A stretch of DNA of 64,000 nucleotides from Octopus vulgaris (taxonomy: Eukaryota): contig OX597840.1 in the NCBI GenBank assembly GCA_951406725.2, positions 23,126,001-23,190,000 on the forward strand, read 5' to 3'. The notes under the pieces were generated by a model. That model saw only the letters and a program-made list of their open reading frames with translations, did no database searches and was not told the origin of the DNA. Positions 10,000 to 46,780 of the stretch are shown piece by piece. Made by a program: the position numbers and the translations under genes. Position 1 is the first letter of the stretch. Each line of letters opens with the position of its first letter.

Positions 10000-12900
10000 C
10001 AATTTACGTTTCTATACACTTTACACAAATATTTGATTAAACAACTAAAACACTTCACATTTCGAACATGTACGTAAACTACTTCCATTCATACAAATCT
10101 AACTTTATTTTAACTCAAATTTCTATACATTTTACACACTCTGTCGCTATACTTGCATAAAAAATTTCTTTCAGCTGCTAATATTTCTTTCTTTTCCTTC
10201 CACGGTTAACATTTTTCCACATTTCATTCACATTACAATTTCTATCTTTAAGTAACTTTCACCCTTTCTTTTTCACATAAAATGCCACCGAAAAAGAGAA
10301 GTCGCCTCGGCCACCATACTGCAGCAGCAGCGGCGCAAAAGGCGATTATCGCAAACGAGTCTTCCGACAAAAAGGCTTTCAGACTTTCACAGAGCGCCTT
10401 ACGTTCAGCGCAATCACGAGCTGCTGAAAATTTACAACAGCGCAACGCACGCCTAGCAAAAATGGCTTTATATGATGCTGCTTCCAGGGCTTCAGATGGT
10501 CCGGAAACAAGGTCGAAGCGCATGGCCATAAAGGCTGCTGCTGCTGTTGCTGCACAAAGGGCCACTCGACTGGCTACAAACGCTGCGGCTACTGCTGCTT
10601 CAACATTTTCGGCTGCTGAAAATTTACAACAGCGCAACGCACGCCTAGCAAAAATGGCTTCATACGATGCTGCTTCCAGGGCTTCAGAGGGTCCGGAAAC
10701 AAGGTCGAAGCGCATAGCCATAAAGGCTTTTGCTGTTGCTGCACAAAGGGCTTCAGAGGACCCACAACAAAGGGCCACTCGACTGGCTACAATCACTGTG
10801 GCTACTGCTGCTTCAACATTTTCGACACATTCCCATGACTCAGACCAGCAACGTTCTACATTCCAGCGGAACAGTCAACGCCGCGAGGCTACCTGCGGTC
10901 TGACGAGTCCAAACAGCCCTTACTGGCATCTACAGGCTTTCAAGTATGAGCCCAACTTCAATTACTCGATGCACGCTGACATAAATATTCGGGAAATGTG
11001 CTTCAATTGCCATTTCTGCAATGCTAAAAAGTGGGCTGGGGAACCACCTGCAATGTGCTGCTTAAACGGTAAGGTCAGCTTGCCCCCTCTTCGGGAGCTG
11101 CCAGACCCTTTGAAGGAATTACTTACTGGTTCCACCTCAAGGTCATCAAAATTCCTTCAACTCATCAGGAAGTACAATTGTGCATTTCAGATGACTTCTT
11201 TCGGGGCTAACGTTGTCAGAGAAACTGGTTGGATGCCTACTTTCAAGGTCCAGGGCCAGGTGTACCACCTTATTGGGTCACTCCAGCCACTACAAAATTG
11301 CAAACCTTCGTTCCTTCAAATTTATTTCATTACAAATTACAATAGGCAACTTGATTTGCGTTTCGGCGTAATTCCACAACCTGCAAACACTGACGCTGAC
11401 AATTTCGACAGAGACGTGCTGCTCAGTCTGCAAAACATGCTTCATGACCACAACAGCTATATTCGCAGTTTCAAATACGCCTTGGAAACAGCCCCTTCAC
11501 CAACATTCACCATAGTCATCGATGCTGACAAAAGGCCTTCTGGGGAGCACGCGCGCCAATATAACGCTCCTTCATGCAATGAAGTGGCCATAGTTCTCCA
11601 TGGTGAACAGCACAATCAGCGGGACATAGTTCTTCAAAGTCACGACAGTGGTCTTCAGCGTATTAATGAGACGCATCGGTCATATGACGCCCTGCAGTAT
11701 CCCCTTCTTTTTCCGTATGGAGAAGACGGGTACCATTTCGGCATTCCTCACCACAAACCAAACGAGCCCTCGGCTGCGACATCTAAAACTGTTTCATGTA
11801 TGGCTTTTTACTCATACCGCTTCATGACAAGGCATAATGATTTCAACCCCCTGCACAGATCACGGGAACTGTTTCACCAGTTTGCAGTTGACATGGCTGC
11901 AAAGATGGAGTCCGAGAGACTGTGCTTATCAAATTGAATCAGAAGCAGCTGCGCTCAGACTCCTACATCCATTTGCGTGATGGCATCAGGAATGACACTG
12001 ACGTCCGCAATATCGGCAAAATGTGCATTCTCCCCTCAACCTATACAGGGGGCCCACGGTACATGCACGAGCGAACATAAGATGCTATGACTTACGTTCG
12101 GCATTATGGGCGACCCGATTTATTCATTACCTTTACATGTAATCCAAAGTGGGTTGAGGTAACGCGAGAACTTCTCCCAGGGCAGCAGTACTGTCATCGC
12201 CATGATATCATTGCAAGGGTTTTCAGGCAGAAACTGGCTAAGCTCATTCATTTAATAAAAAAAAGGGCAGGTTTTTGGACCTGTTAACTGCCACATGTAT
12301 ACTGTTGAGTGGCAGAAAAGAGGGTTGCCACACGCGCACATTTTGCTTTGGTTGGTCAACAAAATAGACCCAACAGTTCTTGATGATCTCATTGCAGCAG
12401 AAATTCCGGACCCAACTGTTGACCGGCAGCTGTACGACATTGTGAAGGCACACATGGTACACGGTCCGTGCGGTCCTGGTTTTCAAAAGTTCTCCTCATG
12501 CCACAAAGACCACGTGTGCACTAAACGGTACCCAAAGAGGTTCGTGGACGAGACCCAGACCGGCCGCGACGGATACCCACTGTAGAGAAGAAGGCACCCT
12601 GACAATGGTGGATTCACTATAACGTTACGGGGTCATCAAGTGGATAATAGGTGGGTAGTAACGTACTGTCCATTTCTGATGAAAACTTTTAACGCTCACA
12701 TAAATGTGAAGTTCTGTCATTCAGTCAAGTCTATAAAGTATATATGTAAATATGTTAACAAGGGTTCTGACGCTGCCATGTTTGGCCTTCAAAAGGACAA
12801 TAGCATGGACGAGGTGTCACAGTACTAGGCAGGTCGGTACATAAGCAGTGGTGAAGCTTTTTGGCGGATATTCGGGTTTCCACTTCACCAAAGGCACCCC

Positions 12901-15885
12901 GCCATCATACAACTAGCGATTCATTTGGAAAATGGCCAGTGAACTTACTTTACTGAACAGACTGCAGCTGAATTGGGGGCAAATCCAAAACAAACAACTT
13001 TGACCGGTTTCTTTAGGCTTTGCCAACTTGACACATTTGCTAAAACACTTTTATACCCTCAGGTCCCGTCCTACTATGTGTGGTCAAACAACAATTGGGT
13101 GCGTAGGAAGTTGGGTCAGGATGTTGAAGGACATCCTGGTGTCAAGTTTAACAGTTGTCTAGGAAGAGTCTACACTGTACCTCCAAACCAACATGAGTGT
13201 TTTCACCTGCGCCTTCTCCTCCATGAGGTTTTAGGCACACAAAGTTTTCAAGACATCAGAACTGTTAATGGTGTATTATGTGATACTTTCCGCGAAGCCT
13301 GTTTTCGGCGTCGACTTTCGGAGGATGATTCACAATGGGGCGCCACTATGGCGGAGGGTGTTTCATTAAAATCTCCTAAAAAAATCAGATCGCTTTTCGC
13401 TATTCTATTACTATGGTGTGACTTGGCTAATCCCGCCTCTTTATGGCTTACCTACAAAGATTATATGTCTGAAGATTTCCTGCGTCACGCTCAATCGCTA
13501 CATCCATCAATGGAGGTCGGGTACACTGACCTCATTTACAACAGGGCACTGCTTGAAATCGAAGATACTGTACTTGATATGGGTGGTAGTGCCTTGCCGG
13601 TCTATGGCCTACCTTCAACAAACCGGGAAGGCACAAACACTCTGTCTTCACATTTGCTGCGTGAGACATGTTTTAATGTTGACGAGCTTGCCGAGTACAT
13701 AGCCGACAATGAGCCAAAGCTCCTTCCAGAACAGAAGTTCGGGCCAAAGCTGGGGGGATTTTTTTCCTGGACGCTCCTGGGGGCAATGGGAAAACTTTTG
13801 TCAACAAATTAATATTGGCTGAGATTAGGCGAACACAAGGCATTGCCCTAGCTGTGGCATCATCTGGAATTGCGGCTACTTTGTTGCCAGGCGGCAGGAC
13901 AGCTCACTCTACTTTCAAGCTCCCGCTTGACTTAGTGAAGACTGAGACACCAACTTGCAACATCAGTAACAGCTCCGATCAGGCAGAAGTCTTCAGACGA
14001 TGCAAGCTTATCGTTTGGGATGAATGCACGATGGCCCACAGAGGTGCTCTTGAGGCACTAGATAGATCACTCAGAGACATCAAACACTCTTCACCTCCCA
14101 TGGGAGGCATAACACTTCTTCTTTCAGGGGACTTCCGACAAACACTTCCCGTTATTCCCAAAGGGACTAGAGCTGATGTAGTAAGTGCGTGTCATAAGTC
14201 ATCCACATTGTGGCCACTGGTGAAGACTCTCAAACTTCACACCAATATGCGTGCTCATATGCGACGTGATATATCTTCAGCAGCATTTTCTCACACCCTC
14301 CTTGCACTTGGCGAAGGCAAAATACCAGGGGATGAAAATGGTAATATTGCCATCGATTCCATTTGTACCATTGTTAAAACGCCTTCTGATCTCAGAGATG
14401 CAGTGTTCCCAGATCTACAAGCTAATTATCAGAATATGGATTGGATTGGCCAAAGGGCTATTCTGGCCCCGAGGAATAAAACTGTTCACCATATTAATGA
14501 TGAAATGCTAAAACTCATTCCTGGGGATGTCTATGTATATAAGTCTATTGATACAACTCCTGACCCAGAGGACGTCACCAATTATCCAATAGAGGTACAC
14601 AATTCCTTTGAGCCCCCGGACTACCACCACACATTCTCAAACTTAAAGTTGGTGCCCCTATAATGCTCATTAGAAATTTGGTTCCCCCAAAACAATGTAA
14701 TGGCACACGTTTGATCGTTAAGTCCTTATCTCCCAATCTGATTGAGGCCACCATTATCACAGGGTGCGGTCGAGGCAACGTTGTGCTCATACCTAGGATG
14801 CATCTTTTCCCATCAGGAGCAGACCTACCTTTCATATTTCGGAGGTCCCAGTTCCCAGTAAGGCCATGTTTCGCAATGTCAATTAAAAAAGCGCAGGGTC
14901 AAACACTGTCTGTGGTGGGAATACATTTGGGAGAGCCATGTTTCTCTCATGGTCAGCTTTATGTCGGCTGCTTGCGTGTCGGCAGCAACAGTGATGCTTT
15001 CGCATTCGTTCCACAGCGAAAAACAAAAGACATTGTGTACAAGGAGGTTTTATAGGATTACTACGTTTCATCATTTTCGAACACGTTAGTATTTCACTTA
15101 CATACGACTCTCTTTTATGATGGCATTTACATTTTTAGGCGTTTCATGATATTAATTCACACTTAACCAACACCTGTCCTTCGCTCACCTCTATTTCTAT
15201 CCATTCATCATCAAACCACCAGCCTCATCTTCTATATCCAACGTACATGACACATCTACCACCTACATCTACACTCTCACTGTTAAAGTTTACATAAGCG
15301 ACAACACGATCGCAACATACACTTTGGAAACTAAGCAACAGATCATTTTATACAACAACAAATTTAATCAAAACGCCCATCAATGAAAACATCTCCACCA
15401 CTGTGTTGTGATTCATCTAATCAGCACCACAACAGTCTTGCTGGTCTGACATATGTTGAGTAGATGCTATTGTTCTATATTTTATAAATTATCCATATTT
15501 ACTTACCCATGCTTCATTCCCCTCTTGTCTACATAGGAAATCCACTCTCTTTTAACACAGCATGAAGTTTTGTAACAGCACATCCGCTGCTGTTCATGCA
15601 AAACGAAGAGACCTTATTCACCTGCGAACGTTTTACATCGCCTTCCGTGACTATCAAATTCTTACAATTATGAGAACAATAACATGGCTCTTTTCAAGGC
15701 AACCTCGCATTCAATTCTTACACCATTCTACGAGGGGGTAGGAACCCTTTACACGGCTTTCTATACACTTACAAATACATTCATTCGCCGTAAACTTACA
15801 TCAATATTTGTCTGAATAATCATCATAATTCAGTGCAATCATTAACAGTACTTTCAAGCAATTCAGCCCCGAGCAATTCTGCTAG
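10000..15885 (+). mobile_element. Helitron (autonomous type, inactive); 3' end CTAG|T at 15885; 5' end not resolved, start approximate
   Basis: RepHel ORF followed by cccgagcaattctgCTAGt, homologous to the Helitron ends at 37532-37559 and 29946-29972. Confidence 0.8.
10282..15055 (+). pseudogene. Helitron Rep/PIF1 helicase (RepHel) polyprotein, multiply disabled
   Basis: Zn motif CHFC..CC. Rep motifs FITFTCNPKW, EWQKRGLPHAH (HUH) and KYICKYVNKG. Helicase motifs FLDAPGGNGKT (about 13765), WDEC, GDFRQTLP, KAQGQTL and HGQLYV. Stops or frameshifts near 11925, 12078, 12263, 12583, 12826, 12939, 13735 and 14620. Confidence 0.95.
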
Positions 15886-29945: not shown

Positions 29946-31137
29946 TAGCAGTATAACCCGGCGTTGCTCGGTATTAAATTCGGATCATTAAGTGATGAAG
30001 CGCTTTACTTTAAACCAAAATAAGTGATAATAACATCACATTCGAGCGAAATCTGCTGAAATTGGCAAAAGTTTGGCTGCAAGTGGGATCGCAGGCAATT
30101 TGAATGGGAAATACCATAAGGAATGTTTATCGATTATTTCCACTCATCGTTATTTGGGGTTTTTTTTTTTGAGAACTTAAAGCATTCAAAGATCCCATAA
30201 GTCCTAAGTAATGTTGGCATCGAGTTTGAGCAAAATATGTCGAAATCCTTAAAAGTTATGGTTGAAAATGGGGTGTAGCCAATGTTAGCAGAAATCCTAT
30301 AAGGAATTAGTTTATCAATTCTTTATCCTCATTGAATGGAAATCCCAAATCGATGCCTGCTACCGATGGCGTTTGTCCTTGGGATTTGTTGATGGAGATG
30401 GTGAAGCATGGTCTGACCAGAAACTGCAATCTGTAGAACTTCACCGGCATGTCTGACCGTGGGGGATAAAGCTGCATCCTTGAAATGAAAACATCTTCAC
30501 CCCTCCTGCACCCTGTAACAATGGTGGCCTAAATCAAGTGGGGCGTCAGGGACTTGATTACTAAGCGGGTCCTGTTGCACTGTTTAGGCGGAAGTAAGTT
30601 TCTGATTAGCATAATTGGGCATCCAACCCTTAGCCTGAGGACGTGAGGTGGAAGCCCTGCTGGCTCCAATGAGTTGAGAAACTCGATAGGGTAAATGACA
30701 ATGCCTTCGGGGTCAGACGTCCGGTCAATTGATTTGTAGATGTACTCCTCACCCCGAATTCGTCATATGAGCTGGTCATTGATAGCACTGACACCTACGT
30801 TTTTAGGGGCCAGGATGGTTCTTTCACCGAGCCAATTGATGTCTGCATAATTACTTTCCAGATTGGGGAACACTGTTACCAAAAGACCGAAAGGGTTGTT
30901 CACGGAGTTGCACAGTTCATAGACTGATATGTTGCCCCTATCATTCCTAGGGACCTTGCCTTCTCCAAGGGCTAAAATTTCTTCACCAAATGCCGCAGAC
31001 ATTCTATCACCAAGCAAGTGCGCATACATGTTTGTGATTAGGCTTAAGGTCTTAACCTGGGGCCACAACATGGATGACTTAAGGCATGCGTGCACTTCAT
31101 CAGCCCTGCTCCCTTTAGGAATGACAGGAAGGATTTG
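29946..31137 (-). mobile_element. 3' part of a second Helitron (PIF1 helicase C-terminus and terminus)
   Basis: QILPVIPKGSRADEVHACLKSS...ILAPKN...MLIRNLLPPKQCN is a clear paralogue of 13815-15055. Minus-strand end ccgagcaacgccgggttatactgCTAC (CTAG mutated). Confidence 0.85.
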
Positions 31138-31420
31138 CACACTTCTTTCTGAGTCTTTTCTTCCTCTTCCCATCTCATTCCTAACCTTATCCTCTTTTCT
31201 TTCTCCCAGTTTTTCTCTAATGGCTGAAAGTGTTATTGACAGGCTAAGTAACGTAATGACATGCAGAATTATTATAAGATCACCTTTCTCTACTTCTTCT
31301 TCACTCCTCCATCCCTCTCATGCCTACTCCACTACATAACAAAAGTATACCAGTTGGAGAGAGAGAAGCTGGTTATATATTTATATATATCTATATCTAT
31401 CTATTTATATATATATATAC

Positions 31421-32284: not shown

Positions 32285-34647
32285 TTACTCTTTTACTTGT
32301 TTCAGTCATTTGACTGTGGCCATGCTGGAGCACCAGCTTTAATTGAGCAACTCGACCCCGGGACTTATTCTTTGTAAGCCCAATACTTATTCTATCGGTC
32401 ACTTTTGACGAACTGCTAAGTGACGGGATATAAACACACCAGCATCAGTTGTCAAGCAATGCTAGGGGGGGACAAACACAGACACACAAACATACATATA
32501 TACGACAGGCTTCTTCCAGTTTCCATCTACCAAATCCACTCACAAGGTTTTGGTCGGCCCGAGGTGCCACGCAGTGGGACTGAACCCGGAACCATGTGGT
32601 TGGTTAGCAAGCTACTTTTATTCATTAAATTTGCCATGAAGGCAGTACATAGATGTAACTCTGCGGGCTGGACGTAGACATTGATGGTATGAATGATGGT
32701 GATGGGAGAAGACGAAAGCGCCTGCCGACTTCCGCTTCTCTAAGACAACGTTCTTTTTTCAAAAAAATCAAAAAGTCACATAGAGGCAATGAACCTCTTT
32801 CTCAATATGATACAAATTTTCTTTTTTAAAAACATTCAAAAAGTTCAAGTCACCCGGCCGACCAGCGCTTTTGCTTTATCGAGGCAATCATTCTTTGTCG
32901 GGCGGCAGTATTCAGGTATAAACTGAAAGGAGCCCTCCGGGAAGGAATTCATGATCCTGCACAGATCGCTATGCCATAGGACCTCTGCAGCCACCTGCGA
33001 AGGCCACTCAGGGTCCTCCATGCAGGACCGAAGTCCCTCCCATTGGCCTCTCCCTTCCAATTTACCTATCTCGTTTTCAAGCGTTCCTCCTTTGTGGAAG
33101 AGGACCACATATTGATTCTCCGGCAGCACATCCACCTGAGGAGGCTTGGGAGACACCGTCTACGTGTCCTGCCGCCGGCATCCAGTTTGTCTTTCTTTTT
33201 TTTTTCCTTTTTTTCCCTGGGCTGCGGGAGGGTGAGGTTCCTGTGTTGCACACAACGGGTCCTCTTTTTCTCCTGCAGCTCCCGGGTCTTTCGGTGGGTC
33301 ACCATTGTTGCCCATCTTTCTTTTCTTTTTTGAGGATGTAGCAATTTCCTCGTTCTGTTTCTCTCCCTCCATTGGGGGAGCAGGGAGAGATTCCACCATT
33401 AACTGCTCCAGATTCCTACTTTGGTCCCTGGGGCAGTTCTTCTTAATGTGGCCGGTCTCCAGGCACAGGTGACACTTGGGGGGGGGTGTCCCTCAAGCAT
33501 CACCGGATACTTGGACCCGGCCATCCTCAAGAAATCTGGTAAAACCAGACTTTTGGCTGATTGGGTCCATAGGGTCAAAACAGCTTTCGACCCCTCCCAA
33601 TCAGGCGCAGGCAACACTTTTACATCCGGCAGCTCGGCGCTGCTACCACCCAGACCCTGGCGGAGAGAGTCCTCTATCCACTCGGGCTCAACCCCGGGTG
33701 ATAAGCCGCAGATCCAAGCCCTCAATAGTTTTTCTCCCATATAGTTTGGGAGAAACAATATTTCTTTGCCCTAAAGGGGCTGGCTTGCAAAGTCGCAAGC
33801 TTCTTGTGGGGAGTCAAATAGCAACCACTCCCCGTGAGATAAATTTAACGGCTGGCATGTAGTCTGCCAGCTTGTTTAAAATTGTGGCCTTCGGGAAGAC
33901 AGCTATGGTGTCGAGCGACTTCGAGTAAGTCCTCAACACCACGGTCTTCCTTTCCAGCTCTTTTAAATGTTTTTTGGGAGGTGTTAGGTCCCACACAATA
34001 AATTCCTTTGCCATTTCGAAATGGAATCCAATTAAAGTTCAAAAGTGTAAGAAAATAAATAAGATAGAAAGAGGGAGAAGAGAAAACAACAGAAAAGAAG
34101 AATTACACTAAAAATAACAGTTCAAAAGAGTTCTTTTTAAAAATAAACGATAGCTGGAAGAAGAGAGTTCAAATTCAGCAAAGGAATTAATTTTTTTGGC
34201 CAAAAAGGTACTCCTGGCCAAACGTCCAAAACAGTCCTTGGTTATCCTTGGTGCTTCTTCGTAAATCCAACAAAACAGTCCTTGGTTATCCTTGGTGCTT
34301 CTTGGTAAATCCAACACGAAATCAATTAATTTTTGAGGAAGGGTTAAGCCTCCTCAAAAACCACAATTCTCACTGCAAAGTGAGTCTTTACGCTTGACCA
34401 CAGGCAGGAAAATGTCTGGAGCAAAGTGGAGTCTATTACTCTCCAAAAAAAATAATAAATACAGAGCAATAAACTTCACTAAGCCCCTAAAAAAATACAA
34501 CAAACGCCTACCTGTAGTCGAGTCTCAAAATTCAATAATTCACGCCGAAAGACGTGACATCAAACAGCAAGAACTCTCCGCCAAAAAATACACGTCCGAA
34601 CACGTCGAAGGTTAGCAAGCTACTTACCACACAGCCACTCCTGCGCC
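32285..34647 (-). mobile_element. SINE family 1 split by a nested insertion (32285-32617 and 34610-34647)
   Basis: Body ends ...tggttagcaagctactt and the head resumes ggttagcaagctacttaccacacagccactcctgcgcc. Confidence 0.9.
32618..34609 (-). mobile_element. Non-autonomous ORF1/gag-only non-LTR retroelement, 1992 bp, 16-bp TSD
   Basis: TSD GGTTAGCAAGCTACTT at 32602-32617 and 34610-34625. Minus 3' end ...tttaatgAATAA(aa). A single frameshifted ORF at 34014-32845 carries the CCHC knuckle CHLCLETGHIKKNC. No EN or RT. Confidence 0.85.
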
Positions 34648-34697: not shown

Positions 34698-35489
34698 TCA
34701 CGGGGAGGTTTTCTCCACTGTATGAATACGCTTGTGTCTAGTTAGGCAACTACTAACAGAGAATGATTTATCACAGATGTCACAGTGATATGGCTTCTCC
34801 CCTGTATGAACCCTTGAGTGAGTAGTAAAGTTACCTCTGTGATAGAATGATTCACCACAGACACCACATTGATAGGGTTTCTCCCCTGTATGAATACGTT
34901 TGTGTTGAGTTAAGCTACCGTTTTCAGAGAAAGATTTACCACATAAATCACAGTGATATGGTTTCTCTCCCGTATGGATACGTTTATGACGAGTTAAGCT
35001 ACTGCCAACAGAGAACGATTCACCACAGATATCGCAGGGATAAGGTTTCTCTCCTGTATGGATACGTATATGTCGAGTTAAGTGACTGTCATTAGAGAAT
35101 GATTTACCACAGATAGTACAGTGATATGGTTTCTCCCCCGTATGAATACGTTTGTGTCGAATGAAGTTACTGCCATCGGCGAATGATTTACCACAGATAT
35201 CACACTGATAGGGTTTCTTCCCTGTATGAATATGTTTGTGTTGAGTTAAGTGACTGTCAACAGAGAATGATTTACCACAAATATCACACTGATAGGGTTT
35301 CTTCCCTGTATGAAGCTGTTTGTGAGTAGCTAAGCTACCTCTCCGACTGAATGATTTACCACAGATATCACAGTGGTATGGTTGTTCCCTTATATGAATT
35401 TGTTTGTGTTGATTGAATTTACTTTCTTCTAAGAATGACTCTTTGCAGATGTCACAGTCATATGATGATTTTCCTAATTCTTCCGACAT
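34698..35489 (-). CDS. G5: C2H2 zinc-finger protein, 9 fingers
   Basis: 263-aa ORF. Acceptor at 35567-35566. Confidence 0.92.
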   Translation of the reverse strand: MSEELGKSSYDCDICKESFLEESKFNQHKQIHIREQPYHCDICGKSFSRRGSLATHKQLHTGKKPYQCDICGKSFSVDSHLTQHKHIHTGKKPYQCDICGKSFADGSNFIRHKRIHTGEKPYHCTICGKSFSNDSHLTRHIRIHTGEKPYPCDICGESFSVGSSLTRHKRIHTGEKPYHCDLCGKSFSENGSLTQHKRIHTGEKPYQCGVCGESFYHRGNFTTHSRVHTGEKPYHCDICDKSFSVSSCLTRHKRIHTVEKTSP

Positions 35490-36755
35490 CTCTTCAAGAG
35501 AAATAAAATCAATTCTTCAAGTTGTACAGATCAACAACTTTTCAATAATATTTCATGTGATTTTTCTGAAAGAATAGAAAAAAATAATATAAGATATCAA
35601 TTATGTTTAAAAGGCAGATATTCAAAAGTGCAAATTTACGACATTTCTGTTTTCATAAATTGTAGAAGTAATTCTTTATCTGAACTATTAAACTAATCCC
35701 ATCTCTCTGTCTATATCAGGGTGTAGACACATGTAGTATAATAACATCTCCTGGACATTAAGTCTGTCATAGACACATACCAATATACATGTCAATAATA
35801 CTAGATATCTGATGTTTTCATCTTAGTCATGTGTCGTAAAAGAGATATCACACCTCCCCTGCCTATTTCCGTACATTTATAAATATATAAATACACACAT
35901 ACAGGCAGCTTAATGTCAATATTCTGTTGAATATGAAACATGAATAACAGTCAGTAAATAATCAGTATGGATGACTAACAGCATCAAAATCTTTTGTGGG
36001 GAATTTTTGATGTAGGAAAAATTATTGGTTGAGGTGGAGAAGGAAATTGGTGACAATCCTTCTCAATGGGGGCAAATGATGTAGTTTTAACATTAAATTA
36101 TTCTCGTTTTTTTCTTTAATTTTAAATTCTTACATGTTACAATTAATGTTTCTCTTCCTTTTTACTTTGCAACGAAATATTGTTTATCGTGGTGAGTGAA
36201 AAATACAGCGACGCGTAATCAAGGAGGTGTGAGTTCGAATCTCATAGCCGGCCGCCAACACTTTTCTGCAAAATAGGGGTAGCTTATCCTGTTCAGGCTA
36301 TATTATTAGCAATATCCTGTCTTTGAGAATTTAAAATCACTTCTTTAACTTCCTAAGACATCTCAAAGATTCTAAAGCAAAGTTCGTTTGTTTGTTTACG
36401 TTCATAGTAATTTGAATTTAAATATATATGTATTACGAAGAGAGAAAAGGATAACTTAGGTAATTAATTGAAAATAACATAAAAACACAGAGTGCAATTC
36501 ATATATAATGCCTTAAATCCCAACAACGGACCATTGAATGTGTTTATGTGAAAAAAGATATCGAAAAACATTAGCACGTAAGAGTGAGAAAGAAACTCGG
36601 AAGGTATCAGGTGGTCGTGGGGTGCGCGATAAATAACAGCTAAATTGCTCTTCAATCGGTTTTTTCCATTCTTTGTTGGTTTCATAACCGTTTGAATCCT
36701 TGCATGTACAGCAGAAATACGCAGAAATTTTCTGAAAATTCCCCCAAAATAAAAA

Positions 36756-41001: not shown

Positions 41002-42858
41002 AAACTATTGTATGTCTGAAGAATTTCTCATGGGAAATATATGTTACATGTTTTCTACACATCAAAAAGTTTGTGATTCCTATTAGGAAATGAAACACAT
41101 GTAATGCTGAATAAATAATATCAAACTTTTCTCCAGTCTCCTTATGTGATTTTCTAATTACCTTGCAAAGAATATTATCCAAACCTCCCACAAAAATAAT
41201 GTACGTGTATATATGTAATCACAAGCTTCTTTGTTCAACTGGTGTATTTATGTTAGTTAGAGTAGTGGGGTGAGAGGGAGGGAAAAGTAAAGGAAGGTGG
41301 TCTTATAATAATTCTGCTTGTCATTATGTTACTTAGGTCGTCAGTAACACTTTCATGTGGTTGGAGAGAAAGGATAAGGCCATGAGTGAGACGGGAAGAG
41401 AGAGAAGCGTGCATGACGTGATAGGGGGACATATTTAGTTGAAGGTTGTGATATAGAGGAGAGTTAGGAATATAATTTTAGAAGGTGGGTGATGTTCTGA
41501 TGGAGAGATTAAAGAAAGGTAGAGAGAGAGACAGATGATGGTGGTGGTTGTGATGGTCAATACAAAGTGAAAAGTAATTTTTTTTTTTACTTGAACTAAG
41601 TTTTTTTATAACACCTACAAATTGAAATGTGTATTGGCTCTCTGACCCATCACCTTGGCTTACAAGTTACCACTGATGTGGTTTTCAGAGTAAGCAAAGT
41701 TACATTAAATTCTGACCCCTATATTTTACATATAAGGTATTTATTTTAGTATACACTTCTCGTGTTTTAGATAAGAAATTGTGCCCATGTAAATTTTAAA
41801 ATGTAATTTTTTTACTGTTAATGAGAAAACTGGAAAAATATGAGCGAATATTTATTTTATGAGTGCTGTGTCTATAAAATTGTGCATAAAGTGTATTAAG
41901 TAATTACCGTATTCCAATTTCCTTCAGTTTTCAGTGAATAGCAGATGAGCGACTATCTTTTGATGCAGACACAATACAGGCTCCACTTTAGAGTGTTTTG
42001 GTTTCAGGAATAACCCAATCCATTGCCTCACTAGACACCGAGGCCATGACTAGTGACCGGGACCTTTTGTTTTTGGATAATGGATAAACAGCTAAAAGAT
42101 TATATAAATATATATTTATAAAATTAAAGACTTAAATCTGTACAAGATGCCAAGCAAAAAGAAAAGAATTCAATTAAGAATGCATCGGGTGAAAGAATAT
42201 TGGTTTAAAAAACAAATGACATAAAAATGATAACAATGAAGACTATAAGGAATATGAGGGAGATAGGATGAATCCTTTCTATTTGACAATGGCTGGGCAT
42301 TGTCTTGTTGGAAGACTAATGCTTTTCTGTTGGTAATCTCCAGCCGCAGTTCTTTGATTTTTTGGTTCAAATTAGCCATTTGATGACAGAACACATCAGA
42401 ATTAATGGTCTGGTTTTATGGGAGAAGGTCATAATAAACAATGCCTTTATGATCCCACCAAACACAAAGCACAGGTTTGTTGCCATGGATATTCATCTTT
42501 GGTTGCTTGGGGGATATTTCTGCAAACTCCAGGATCAGTTTTGCACAACATTAAGCATGCAATCCATTTTTCATCTCCAGTCACAAGTCGTTTCCAAAAA
42601 AGGGCATGCTTTCTTTCCATTTCAAAAGCATATCCCAAACGGAATACTGGTCCCAGCAATTCTTTTCCAAGAGTTTCAAGCACCCATATATTAAAGCAAA
42701 GAGTAAGATAGAAAGAGGGACAGAGAGAAGCGTACATGATATGTGATAGGGGGAACATAATATTTACTACATGGTAAAAAAAGTTAGTTGAAGTTGATGA
42801 TATAGAGAAGTTAGCAATATAATTTTAGCAGAGTGGTGATGTTCTGATGGTGAGATTT
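41002..42858 (+). repeat. Left arm of a large inverted duplication
   Basis: 41002-42033 is the reverse complement of 47689-48724. 42599-42858 is the reverse complement of 47429-47688. Confidence 0.92.
42285..42690 (-). pseudogene. Mariner transposase fragment
   Basis: IWVLETL...KRLVTGDEKWI and ...WWDHKGIVYYDLL...VFQQDNAQP match the mariner WVPHEL, TGDEKW and HDNARP motifs. Confidence 0.8.
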
Positions 42859-45800
42859 AAGAAATTCAAGCAGAAAACTCAACTAGCTTTGAAAAGTTTC
42901 CTGAAAGGCACATCTGAAGATGAAAAGGTAAGCCTTTTATGGATGGTCGAAAAAGGTCTAGACCTATTCGATAGCTGGGACATGTCAGAATCGGATTGCA
43001 ATAACCCAGACACACTTTTAGAGAAATTTGAAAGGCACATAGAGCCCAAATCGAACCATAGAATTCACAGATACGAATTCCAGGGCCTGAAACAAGACCC
43101 ACAAGAAACGATTGACAATTTCTTGTCCAGACTAAAGAATGTTGCCGAAAAATGCAAATTCAAAGATAAGAACGAAAGAATTGTTGATCAGTTACTATGG
43201 GGGTGTGCTCATAAAGAAGTTCAGAAATCCCTCATAGGTAAGTACGCTCTCCAGTTGATAGAAGCAGTAGACACTGCAAGAGCATTCGAAGCCACTACCA
43301 AACAAATGGCCTCACTTACCTTAAAAACAAGCTCACTAGGCAGCAGTATAGATATTGCATCTAGGCACAAGACGAAACGTACCCGCAAACAAAGAACATG
43401 CCAGTACTGTGGTACAGAGCATGAGTTCGACAACCGGAAGAAATGTCCTGCATTCGGTACACACTGCAAAGCATATGGAAAACCTAACCACTGGGAAAAA
43501 ATGCGTAGGTTGGCAAAATCCCAGAAATACATGCCCCAATTTTCAAAGAGAAGACAAAGAGATATACATGCACAACTACAGGAACAAAACACCTCAGAGG
43601 AGGAATTCTTGGCAGTCGGCACAATAAATGTGCATGAGATGGGGAATGACGACCAGAGAAAAAATGAGGCATACACAACAATAAGAAAACAAAAGAAGTC
43701 TGGCAAGAAACGAATAAACATTGACTTAAGGCTAAAGATCGACACTGGAGCCCAGAGTGATATCTTGCCTGTCAACCTCTACAAAAAGATGTTCCCAGAA
43801 CACATGACACAAGGGAATAAAATCAAAGAAGGAATCCTCACACCAAGTGATGTAATCCTCACTGCGTACGGAGGTACCAGGATGCCACAACTGGGTAAAA
43901 CAACAATCACAGGGACACACAAAGGAAAAACAATCAAGTGTTCTTTTTATGTCACAACAACAGAAGGTCCAGCAATTCTTGGACTCAATACCTGCAAAAA
44001 GCTAAATATTGTGTCAATCAATGGTGAAGTGAAGGCAACTCCGAGCAGGATTGACAGAGATATGCCTATCAAAGACCGACCACCAATCACAAACAAAGAG
44101 GAACTGATAAGCATGTACCCTGAATGCTTTGACGATACAGTCGGGTGCTTTGTGAAATGTCGATACCATATAGCAGTCGACCCCAATATCAAACCAATTG
44201 TTCACCCACCTCGCCGCGTCCCTCTAGAACTAAAAGAGAAGCTGAAGACAGAGTTGGACAGAATGGAAAAAAAGAAATAATCACCAAAGTGACACGACCA
44301 ACAGACTGGGTGAATTCAATTGTAATCAAGGAAAAACCCAATGGTACCCTACGGATATGCCTCGACCCAAGGGACCTGAACAAGGCATTAAAAAGAGAGT
44401 ACCATCCAATTCCAACCCTTGAAGAAATCACACCATCATTGGCTGGGTCCAGATTATTCCGCAAACTGGATGCCAGTAATGGGTACTGGAATGTAAAGAT
44501 AGACAAAGAGTCATCCATACTCACGACCTTCAACACTCCATTTGGCAGATATCGATTCAACCGACTCCCATTTGGATTGAAGGTGAGCCAAGATGTTTTC
44601 CAGCGCCGAATAGATGAGACCTACCAAGGCTGCAAGGGAGCAATTGGAATAGCAGATGACATCCAAGTGCATGGCAAGGATGAGACCACACATGACTTCA
44701 ATTTACATGAAGCTATGGAGAAAACCCGACAAGCAGGCATCAAACTCAATGCGGACAAGTGTGTGATAAAAGAAAAGGAGTGCAAATTCTTTGGAATTAT
44801 ATACTCTGCAGAGGGAGTGAAACCAGACCCTGCTAAAGTGGAAGCCATCAGAGACATCAAAGAACCCAAGGATAAGAAGGAACTCAGGAGCTTCCTGAGA
44901 CTCATCCACTACATGGGAGCCTTCATACCCAAGCTGGCCGATCACACTGCAAATCTCCGAGAACTAAACAAAGATGACGTAGAGTTTGATTGGTGTGCTT
45001 CACACACACAGGATTTCAAAGCAATCAAAAAGCTCATCAGTAAGGAGACAACTCTGCAATACTATGACAGACGCAAACCAGTAACACTCCAAGTCGATGC
45101 TTCTATGAGAGGAGTTGGTGCAGCACTGATACAGGAAGGTAAACCCATTGCATATGCCTCGAAAGCTCTCTCACCCACAGAGACAAGGTATGCAAATATT
45201 GAAAGGGAACTCCTGGCAGTAGTATATGGATGTGAAAAGTTCCATACATACCTGTATGGCAGACATTTCAATATTGAAACAGACCATCACCCGCTAGAAC
45301 AAATACATAGAAAAAAACCTCATGAAAGCACCAGCCAGACTGCAAAGATTACTGTTAAGGCTTCAAACATACGACTATGATATCAGGTACAAGCCAGGAA
45401 AAGACCTGATATTGGCGGATGTTCTTTCCAGACTATCCTCACATGATAAACAGGAGATGGAAGGACAAAGCATAAAGGTCCACCACATTGTAAATGTAAC
45501 GACTACAAAGCTAGCAGAAATCAAAGATGAAGAACACCAGCTCCTTACTCAGATGGTGATTCAGGGGTGGCCAGAAAAGAGACATCAGGTGCAGCCCCTC
45601 GTTTGTGAATATTAGGCCATCCATGATGATATATCAGTGGAGAATGGAATCCTGATGGCTTGATCCCGAATAATCATACCCAAGTCAATGCAAAAAGAGA
45701 TTCTTGACAAGATCCACCAAGGGCATCTAGGAATGGAGAAATGCAAGCTCCAAGCCAAGTCAGCAGTATATTGGGTAGGCATGTACAAAGACATAGAAAA

Positions 45801-46780
45801 GACAGTTTCTAGATGCCACATCTGTCAAAAGTACAGAAATTCACAACAAAAGAAGGAAATGATATCTAGTGACATCCCATGAAAGCCATGGCAAACTATT
45901 GGAGTAGATCTGTTCACAGAGGGCCAAGAATGGTATTTGATAATGGCCTGCTACTACTCCAAATTTCCATTTGTGAGAAGAGTGAAAGACCTGAGAGCCA
46001 AAACAATCACTACAGTGGCTCGAGGACTTCTAGCAGAGCAAGGAATACCAGAGCAGATCATATGTGACAATGGAACCCAGTTAACATCGCAAGAATTCAA
46101 AAAGCTAGCCGATGAGGATGGGTTCAATATTACAACCTCATCTCCACTCTACCCCAAAGGTCATGGGTTTATAGAAAAAAAGGTGCAGACAGTGAAGAGA
46201 ACACTAGTGAAATGCCGAGAGACTAAGGAAGACCCACACCTGGCACTTCTGTCCCTACGAGCGACACCACTGAGAGCTGACATGAAATCCCCAGCAGAAT
46301 TGCTGAATGGCAGGAAGTACAAAACTACCCTGCCAACTAAGATCCAACCTCCTATTGACCAGGAAGAGACAAGGGCAAAGTTAGCAGCCACTCGAGAACA
46401 ATCACAGAAATATTACAACAGACATGCACAATACTTACCTGAGATACTTGGAGGACAACATGTGCATACTGAAGATCCCATAACTAAAACATGGATTCCA
46501 GCACAGGTTGTCAGTAGAGCTGAAACCCCAAGATCGTATATAATAGTAACGGAATCTGGTGGGGAGCTGAGAGGCAACAGGGCCCACATCCGCCCAACAC
46601 CAAAGCTGTTGAGGACAACGTGTACAACACCTGCTGCATCAGTGACAACACCCACAGAATCATCATCCCAATGGGCACCAACCGCCCATCATCAGCAGCC
46701 CAACACCACACCTCAGACACCGGTGCGAAGCACAAGATCCACCAGAGGGAGAAAGAACATCCTGCCACCGGTTTGATACC
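42859..46780 (+). mobile_element. Ty3/gypsy LTR-retrotransposon internal region (gag-PR-RT-RNaseH-IN), disabled, no LTRs found
   Basis: Gag with degenerate knuckle, protease DTGAQ, RT ICLDPRDLN and IADDI, RNase H DAS..ERELLA, integrase HHCC plus CDNGTQ. Frameshifts at A-runs near 44270 and 45315, and stops at 45613, 45661 and 45880. Confidence 0.95.

Follow-up and report, generated by a model that had tools for sequence, protein, structure and literature searches.

An ORF1-only retroposon and its lesions

How can a retroposon that codes for nothing but an ORF1-type protein have spread, and does it belong to a family at all? The question is raised by a 1992-bp ORF1-only retroposon on the minus strand (32618..34609) of a 64,000-nucleotide stretch of Octopus vulgaris DNA, hereafter the window. 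We propose that it is a decayed copy of an ORF1-only family inserted at one site of a SINE-like repeat, and that this family likely uses in trans the endonuclease and reverse transcriptase (EN-RT) of a 5.44-kb L1/Tx1-type LINE; we put the probability of this reading at about 85%.

The 1992 bp lie between identical 16-mers (AAGTAGCTTGCTAACC, minus strand) at 32602-32617 and 34610-34625, a match that can be extended on neither side. All parts of the element are read on the minus strand. A 5' UTR of 595 nt (34015..34609), with a 44-nt tandem duplication at 34227-34314, precedes a broken ORF1 (32845..34014; ATG at 34014, stop ending at 32845), and a 3' UTR of 227 nt follows (32618..32844), with a TGCC-N5-GGCA inverted repeat at 32632-32644 inside its last 34 nt. 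These measurements agree with the first-pass annotation, which had given about 600 and 230 nt for the UTRs and had noted a frameshifted ORF over the same interval; as it also stated, the 1992 bp have no space for an endonuclease or a reverse transcriptase.

Measured against an intact copy, the window ORF lacks 17 nt near 33827 and has two additional bases in a poly-C tract near 33489 (the slip suspected beside the zinc knuckle), small indels from 33330 to 33168 and a stop at 33160. FLPNYMG, CHLCLETGHIKKNC and PEWPSQVAA are all found in it, in shifted frames. The predicted CX2CX4HX4C knuckle (33433..33474; Pfam zf-CCHC E 0.0024, below the curated cutoff), the Lys-rich linker and the C-terminal domain with its WPxQxAAE motif (32845..33132) are in place, as originally read.

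A multicopy family without ORF2

A search of the octopus genome with the element, flanks excluded, scored 40 of 2627 candidates and yielded 74 matches; at least 20 cover at least 1931 of the 1992 nt, at 72-100% identity. The protein search gave 111 matches, many of them without stops (105 scored of 13,941 candidates), and intact ORF1s in the family measure 393-418 aa, among them one of 395 aa (P0001, locus L022). Copies are dispersed over many contigs with differing flanks, and they bear the signs of target-primed insertion: a duplicated target, an A-rich 3' end and 5' truncations. The named ORF1 homologues come from Octopus species and Argonauta, which supports the assignment to cephalopods that had been suggested from the window alone.

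The 30 best ORF-bearing loci contained no ORF2, and a further 20, more divergent, had none within the unit. A census covered every locus retrieved, with some frameshifted copies counted twice: 119 of 138 ORF1 matches meet the 3' end and the target before any ORF2. Thirteen of the other 19 run off the locus and five have no 3' end that could be found, leaving 18 undecided; the last, scored as 'ORF2 first', is the ORF1 of the LINE described below. The first-pass annotation had named copies with EN-RT after the ORF as what would overturn it, and the census holds none inside the unit.

Nei-Gojobori comparison of 15 ORFs, picked for being intact, gives an overall dN/dS of 0.31 (92 of 105 pairs, dS>0.15), with 0.22 in the N-terminal region, 0.17 in the knuckle, 0.29 in the linker and 0.52 in the C-terminal region. 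Between subfamilies dS reaches 1.6 at dN/dS of 0.2-0.5, and among some near-identical copies dN is about equal to dS. These ratios point to purifying selection on ORF1 between subfamilies. In the simplest reading, selection would act on the ORF1 of transposing master copies, so that each RNA would gain from its own ORF1.

We considered whether the copies might instead have arisen from a LINE by ordinary internal deletion or by duplication at the DNA level, with no ORF-dependent transposing family behind them. The window copy does provide one such duplicate: it and L002 have common flanks over 4.3 kb at 93%, and hence represent one insertion, duplicated later as part of a segment. Unequal crossing-over could also explain the very homogeneous tandem arrays described below. 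Neither process accounts for the spread of copies over many contigs between differing flanks, or for dN/dS of 0.2-0.5 across subfamilies at such high dS, and an ORF2-bearing parent is absent from the census. This explanation is largely refuted and in our view exceedingly improbable; a one-off internal deletion, in particular, was rejected on the multiplicity of the family, the selection across subfamilies and the same absence of a parent.

Some ORF1-only copies (L121, L114, L146, L147, L020 and L023) are mosaics that join N- and C-terminal halves, or 5' ends, of different subfamilies; this suggests template switching or recombination.

Predicted structure of the ORF1 protein

In an AlphaFold2 model built on a 16-row alignment (mean pLDDT 67.7), two beta-alpha-beta-beta-alpha-beta domains and the knuckle are followed by a linker predicted to be disordered (214-304) and by a small alpha/beta domain. 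The best Foldseek matches are tandem-RRM proteins (SFPQ/NONO, E 5e-5; hnRNP A1), and Pfam returned zf-CCHC, a weak longin match and nothing else. We therefore describe ORF1 as a putative RNA binder with two predicted RRMs, a CCHC knuckle, a Lys/Pro-rich linker and a C-terminal domain. ORF1 of mammalian L1 consists of a coiled coil, an RRM and a CTD. HAL1 proper, a mammalian L1 derivative, was ruled out as an identity for the element on these grounds, the predicted architecture not being of the mammalian L1 type.

The C-terminal domain, which the first reading did not recognise, still has no named family; its predicted fold is ferredoxin-like. Modelled alone (pLDDT 72.5), it gives weak matches to ferredoxin-like folds, the best VIA score (Z 6.0) being to a designed ferredoxin fold, followed by Prp3 C-terminal domains (Z 5.2-5.7). 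Such scores are in the range of a common arrangement, and the model offers no evidence of a new fold. The domain had no significant Pfam family, no Foldseek match at E<=0.001 and no match among the stored homologues, and hhalign gave 0.5% against partner-type C-termini and less than 0.3% against the protein's own RRMs. Several divergent subfamilies of ORF1-only elements have this domain; in the ORF1s of autonomous elements it was not detected.

One target site in a SINE-like repeat

The window element interrupts a repeat of about 400 bp that ends in a short-repeat tail. Upstream of the insertion lies the 5' part of this host repeat (34626..34647, minus strand) with an A-box-like motif; the rest (32285..32601, minus strand) comprises a B-box-like motif (32576-32593), the body, a microsatellite and the tail. 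Both motifs were recognised by eye from their likeness to the tRNA-promoter consensus, and ARAGORN and Rfam reported no tRNA in three copies of the host repeat. Excerpts of PMC4758252 do not identify the host SINE. A copy of the host repeat free of insertion is present elsewhere in the window (7103, plus strand).

The ORF1-only family targets a single site of this abundant repeat, between the A-box-like and B-box-like motifs, a feature absent from the earlier reading. By our count, of 27 copies in which a 3' end is present 24 have it at the same site, two lie in the same repeat in opposite orientation and one is elsewhere. We also counted genome-wide with two patterns, which slightly under-count off-site ends since neither allowed A at its last position: the exact window-type 3' end is followed by the site in 13 of 14 cases, and related ends within two differences in 99 of the 100 listed (of 212). 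Without insertion, the site is present 27,671 times in exact form and at least 69,407 times under a loose definition. The target is a near-palindrome, GGTAAG-N7-CTTACC, and older-looking ORF1-only subfamilies are inserted in the variant AAGAAGCTTGCTTCC. Opposite-orientation insertions within the same repeat were seen at three loci (L014, L016 and L195).

A site-specific LINE as the probable enzyme donor

On contig C19, an element with ORF1, endonuclease and reverse transcriptase lies between two ORF1-only units, with the target site at each boundary. It represents a LINE of about 5.44 kb whose ORF1 (467 aa) and ORF2 (1133 aa) are both intact in L086 and L098. Identity within this family is 96-98%, and we regard it as young. 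ORF2 matches Exo_endo_phos (EN), RVT_1 (RT) and zf-RVT, and its best PDB match is human L1 ORF2p (E 8e-67). The LINE is accordingly predicted to have the features of the L1 group: an N-terminal APE endonuclease, a reverse transcriptase and a C-terminal zinc-binding motif in ORF2. No named Tx1 reference is among its listed homologues, and we infer the Tx1 label from architecture and target specificity. The site follows 97 of 100 listed exact 3' ends by our count, and with 76 exact 5' junctions to 103 exact 3' ends most copies are apparently full length.

A partner of L1/Tx1 type with a common 3' end had been anticipated from the window element, and this LINE fits: the last 34 nt of the window element are 79% identical to its 3' end (pairwise BLAST E 0.11), around the TGCC-N5-GGCA inverted repeat. 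Minimum-energy folding forms this hairpin in the partner but leaves it unformed in the window copy. To the eye there is also some likeness close to the 5' ends. The ORF1 of the window family is homologous to that of the partner (27% over 195 aa, E 1e-20). In the ORF1 tree, L174, L178 and L182 had caught neighbouring ORFs and were relabelled by hand, and the group statistics of the tree were left aside for that reason; its deep forks are not resolved. The long ORF1-only lineage, which includes an O. sinensis protein, is one branch of it (100/100), and its stem measures 1.9 changes per site. Given this identity and this stem, the partner is not the direct parent, and another donor is possible.

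Two further lineages were recovered. A second ORF1-only family of 1.47 kb (L039:7475-8931, minus strand, and L173-L184) occupies the same site and forms a separate branch of the ORF1 tree. The other (L185-L196) is a young autonomous family, again of L1/Tx1 type, with intact 1132-aa ORF2 frames, 57-62% identical to the partner ORF2 over long stretches, and a different 3' end. Ten of its 12 copies are off the site; it thereby serves as an internal control, indicating that targeting of this site is not general for these LINEs, and we do not favour it as the enzyme donor.

The common target, the common 3' end and the junction forms described below suggest that the ORF2 of the partner mobilises the ORF1-only elements in trans. 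The donor might rather have been another LINE, unsampled or extinct and with a closer ORF1, the 5.44-kb LINE merely residing at the same site. Such a history would suit the low ORF1 identity and the long stem, as well as the older subfamilies in AAGAAGCTTGCTTCC, a variant in which the young partner was not seen among 100 listed 3' ends; moreover, few candidates were scored in the searches (105 of 13,941, for example), which leaves room for such a LINE. We nevertheless consider it unlikely, since ORF1-only arrays (99.2-99.9% identity) and partner (96-98%) are both young and lie in the same stacks, units of both kinds have the same one-base-longer junction form, and the other autonomous family sampled is not site-specific.

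A composite duplication at the 5' junction

The first-pass annotation took the 16-mers for a perfect 16-bp target-site duplication. That identical 16-mers surround the 1992 bp holds; a plain duplication very probably does not, as across the family only the first 8-10 or so bases behave as duplicated and the element usually supplies the rest of the 5' copy. In the window, the 3' target-site copy (32602..32617, minus strand) is original SINE sequence. The 5' copy (34610..34625, minus strand) begins with about 8-10 bases of true duplication and ends with 6-7 bases that are likely the element's own 5' end, and the true start of the element is probably near 34616. Because the target of the window copy has the consensus sequence, a composite junction is not demonstrable from that copy alone.

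The evidence comes from insertions into variant targets, in a sample of non-independent copies and stacks (L001 and L002, for instance, have common flanks). Over 51 single insertions, the two site copies differ three times at positions 1-8 and 80 times at positions 9-16, the latter figure inflated by one-base shifts. Of 39 ORF1-only single insertions, 37 agree over the first eight bases and 12 over all 16. One or other of five variant motifs is present in 47 of the 140 site copies that precede non-SINE sequence, mostly the 5' end of an element, and in none of 98 that precede the SINE tail, although these copies again are not independent. In the partner, 18 test loci were chosen for a variant target, 16 of them fetched for that variant, and in all 18 insertions with T at position 13 of the target the 5' copy ends in TAACC. 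The 5' copy is one base longer than the target in 12 of these 18, versus 5 of 16 with A at that position. Genome-wide, by our count, 73 of 76 partner 5' junctions end in TAACC and 26 are 17 nt long; the other three end in TTACC (not paired with their 3' copies). The first 100 empty sites listed are all 16 nt long, with the standard GCTAACC form in 37 (our count). The far half of the 5' site copy thus follows the element, not the target.

Could the 16-mer still be a plain target-site duplication, with later mutation or gene conversion behind the differences between 5' and 3' copies? Identity over all 16 bases in 22 of the 51 pairs would be expected of it, and four insertions are genuine exceptions, with 14-16 bp duplications and target variants in both copies (truncated L014 and L021, plus L121 and L124). 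Yet later change would have had largely to spare positions 1-8, to place the variant motifs before element sequence and never before the SINE tail, and to alter 18 of 18 partner junctions in a family only 2-4% diverged. We hold this to be very unlikely. For composite junctions, a perfect 16-bp 'TSD' misleads the annotation of element ends; natural target variants, in turn, allow the formation of the 5' junction, a step of LINE integration that is poorly understood, to be read directly from the genome.

Stacks and a possible mechanism

Since the element supplies the last bases of the 5' copy, an insertion leaves the site rebuilt and units can pile up. At C7:13450000-13484000 (L053, L038, L039 and L054) more than 30 kb are taken up by a head-to-tail stack of at least 14 units, which belong to several lineages, ORF1-only and autonomous; the stack may be longer still. 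Arrays of 2-kb units 99.2-99.9% identical are present on C5 and C1; these could be a product of unequal crossing-over instead.

Under the proposed trans-mobilisation, transcription from the 5' UTR would yield an RNA that is then bound by the ORF1 protein it encodes, as a coat, which would explain selection on the ORF. The partner ORF2 would recognise the common 3' hairpin, nick the bottom strand at GGT/AAG and prime reverse transcription. The RNA would start with 6-8 target-matching nucleotides, so that the cDNA end could anneal to the target overhang and prime the second strand. A usable site would be rebuilt in the process, and later insertions would stack on it head to tail.

Relation to known systems

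The comparisons below draw on excerpts of the cited papers. ORF1-only LINEs are known in the Jockey (HeT-A), L1 (HAL1) and CR1 (Ag-Sponge) clades, and HAL1-type elements are non-autonomous derivatives that code for ORF1p alone and arose several times independently (PMC5786205; PMC5753468). The octopus family resembles HAL1 and Ag-Sponge as an ORF1-only LINE derivative, and the genome likewise has its second, separate 1.47-kb lineage. It differs from HAL1 in being sequence-specific, in a short A-rich tail with the common hairpin and in the predicted RRM-RRM-CCHC architecture of its ORF1; the same excerpts mention no target specificity of HAL1 (PMC5753468; PMC5786205).

Families of the Tx1 clade target other transposons, small-RNA genes or microsatellites: Tx1L inserts in Tx1D, Tx1-Mar in Mariner-N4 together with SINEU, Mutsu in 5S rDNA and Keno in U2, and a shared target has been taken as evidence of trans-mobilisation (PMC4494074; PMC5340908). 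Like those described there, the partner is a LINE with an APE endonuclease and two ORFs, measures about 5.5 kb and has a multicopy target, which in that clade is sometimes another transposon. The octopus target, a SINE-like repeat, is not among the targets named in the excerpts of either paper, and the dependents are protein-coding ORF1-only elements instead of SINEs.

In Drosophila, HeT-A, TART and TAHRE combine a Gag-only element under selection with an RT-bearing partner in one-directional head-to-tail arrays (PMC5537684). The octopus system also pairs an ORF1-only element under selection with an RT-bearing partner in arrays, whereas the fly elements belong to the Jockey clade, occupy chromosome ends and have a host function, and the octopus arrays are internal, at dispersed SINE copies. 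We may further speculate that a HeT-A/TART-like cooperative system has moved from telomeres to a SINE: an old ORF1-only lineage, with a C-terminal domain not detected in autonomous ORF1s, would help a shared particle to reach the site, which each member would rebuild with its own 5' end. We regard this extension as doubtful. If true, it would turn tens of thousands of SINE copies into renewable safe harbours and seeds of long arrays.

R2 elements have one ORF and a restriction-like endonuclease. Annealing of a target-matching RNA end has been postulated at the R2 5' junction, R2 RNA keeping upstream 28S sequence (PMC3774820). Similarly, the first 6-8 bases of the octopus RNA would match the target and anneal to it at the 5' junction. 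R2 has an HDV-like ribozyme, whereas in octopus the matching bases rebuild a reusable site; Rfam reported no ribozyme family in the window element, with two sub-threshold matches only.

An octopus repeat annotation lists L1-Tx1 families, 13 of them recently active and 80 in its supplement, where a search found neither HAL1 nor ORF1 named (PMC13282606). ORF1-only LINEs (HAL1, HeT-A) and transposon-targeting Tx1 families were thus already known separately. Their combination, ORF1-only dependents with a SINE-targeting LINE and a site-rebuilding 5' end, is described in no paper searched and is apparently new; Repbase, Dfam and subscription journals were outside the scope of that search. One genome here holds an intact, young and highly site-specific LINE with at least two ORF1-only lineages that appear to depend on it, a system in which it becomes testable why such elements keep their protein, as parasites or as helpers.

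Neighbouring features of the window

A cluster of C2H2 zinc-finger frames, at least seven of them long, spans 4956-61758 on the minus strand; the retroposon copy lies 72 bases below the 3' end of one such frame (34698-35516). Translations judged by eye also indicate Helitron-like Rep/helicase frames at 10252-14663 and 30763-31317, and Ty3/Gypsy-like gag-pol frames in three pieces at 42829-46776 (plus strand).
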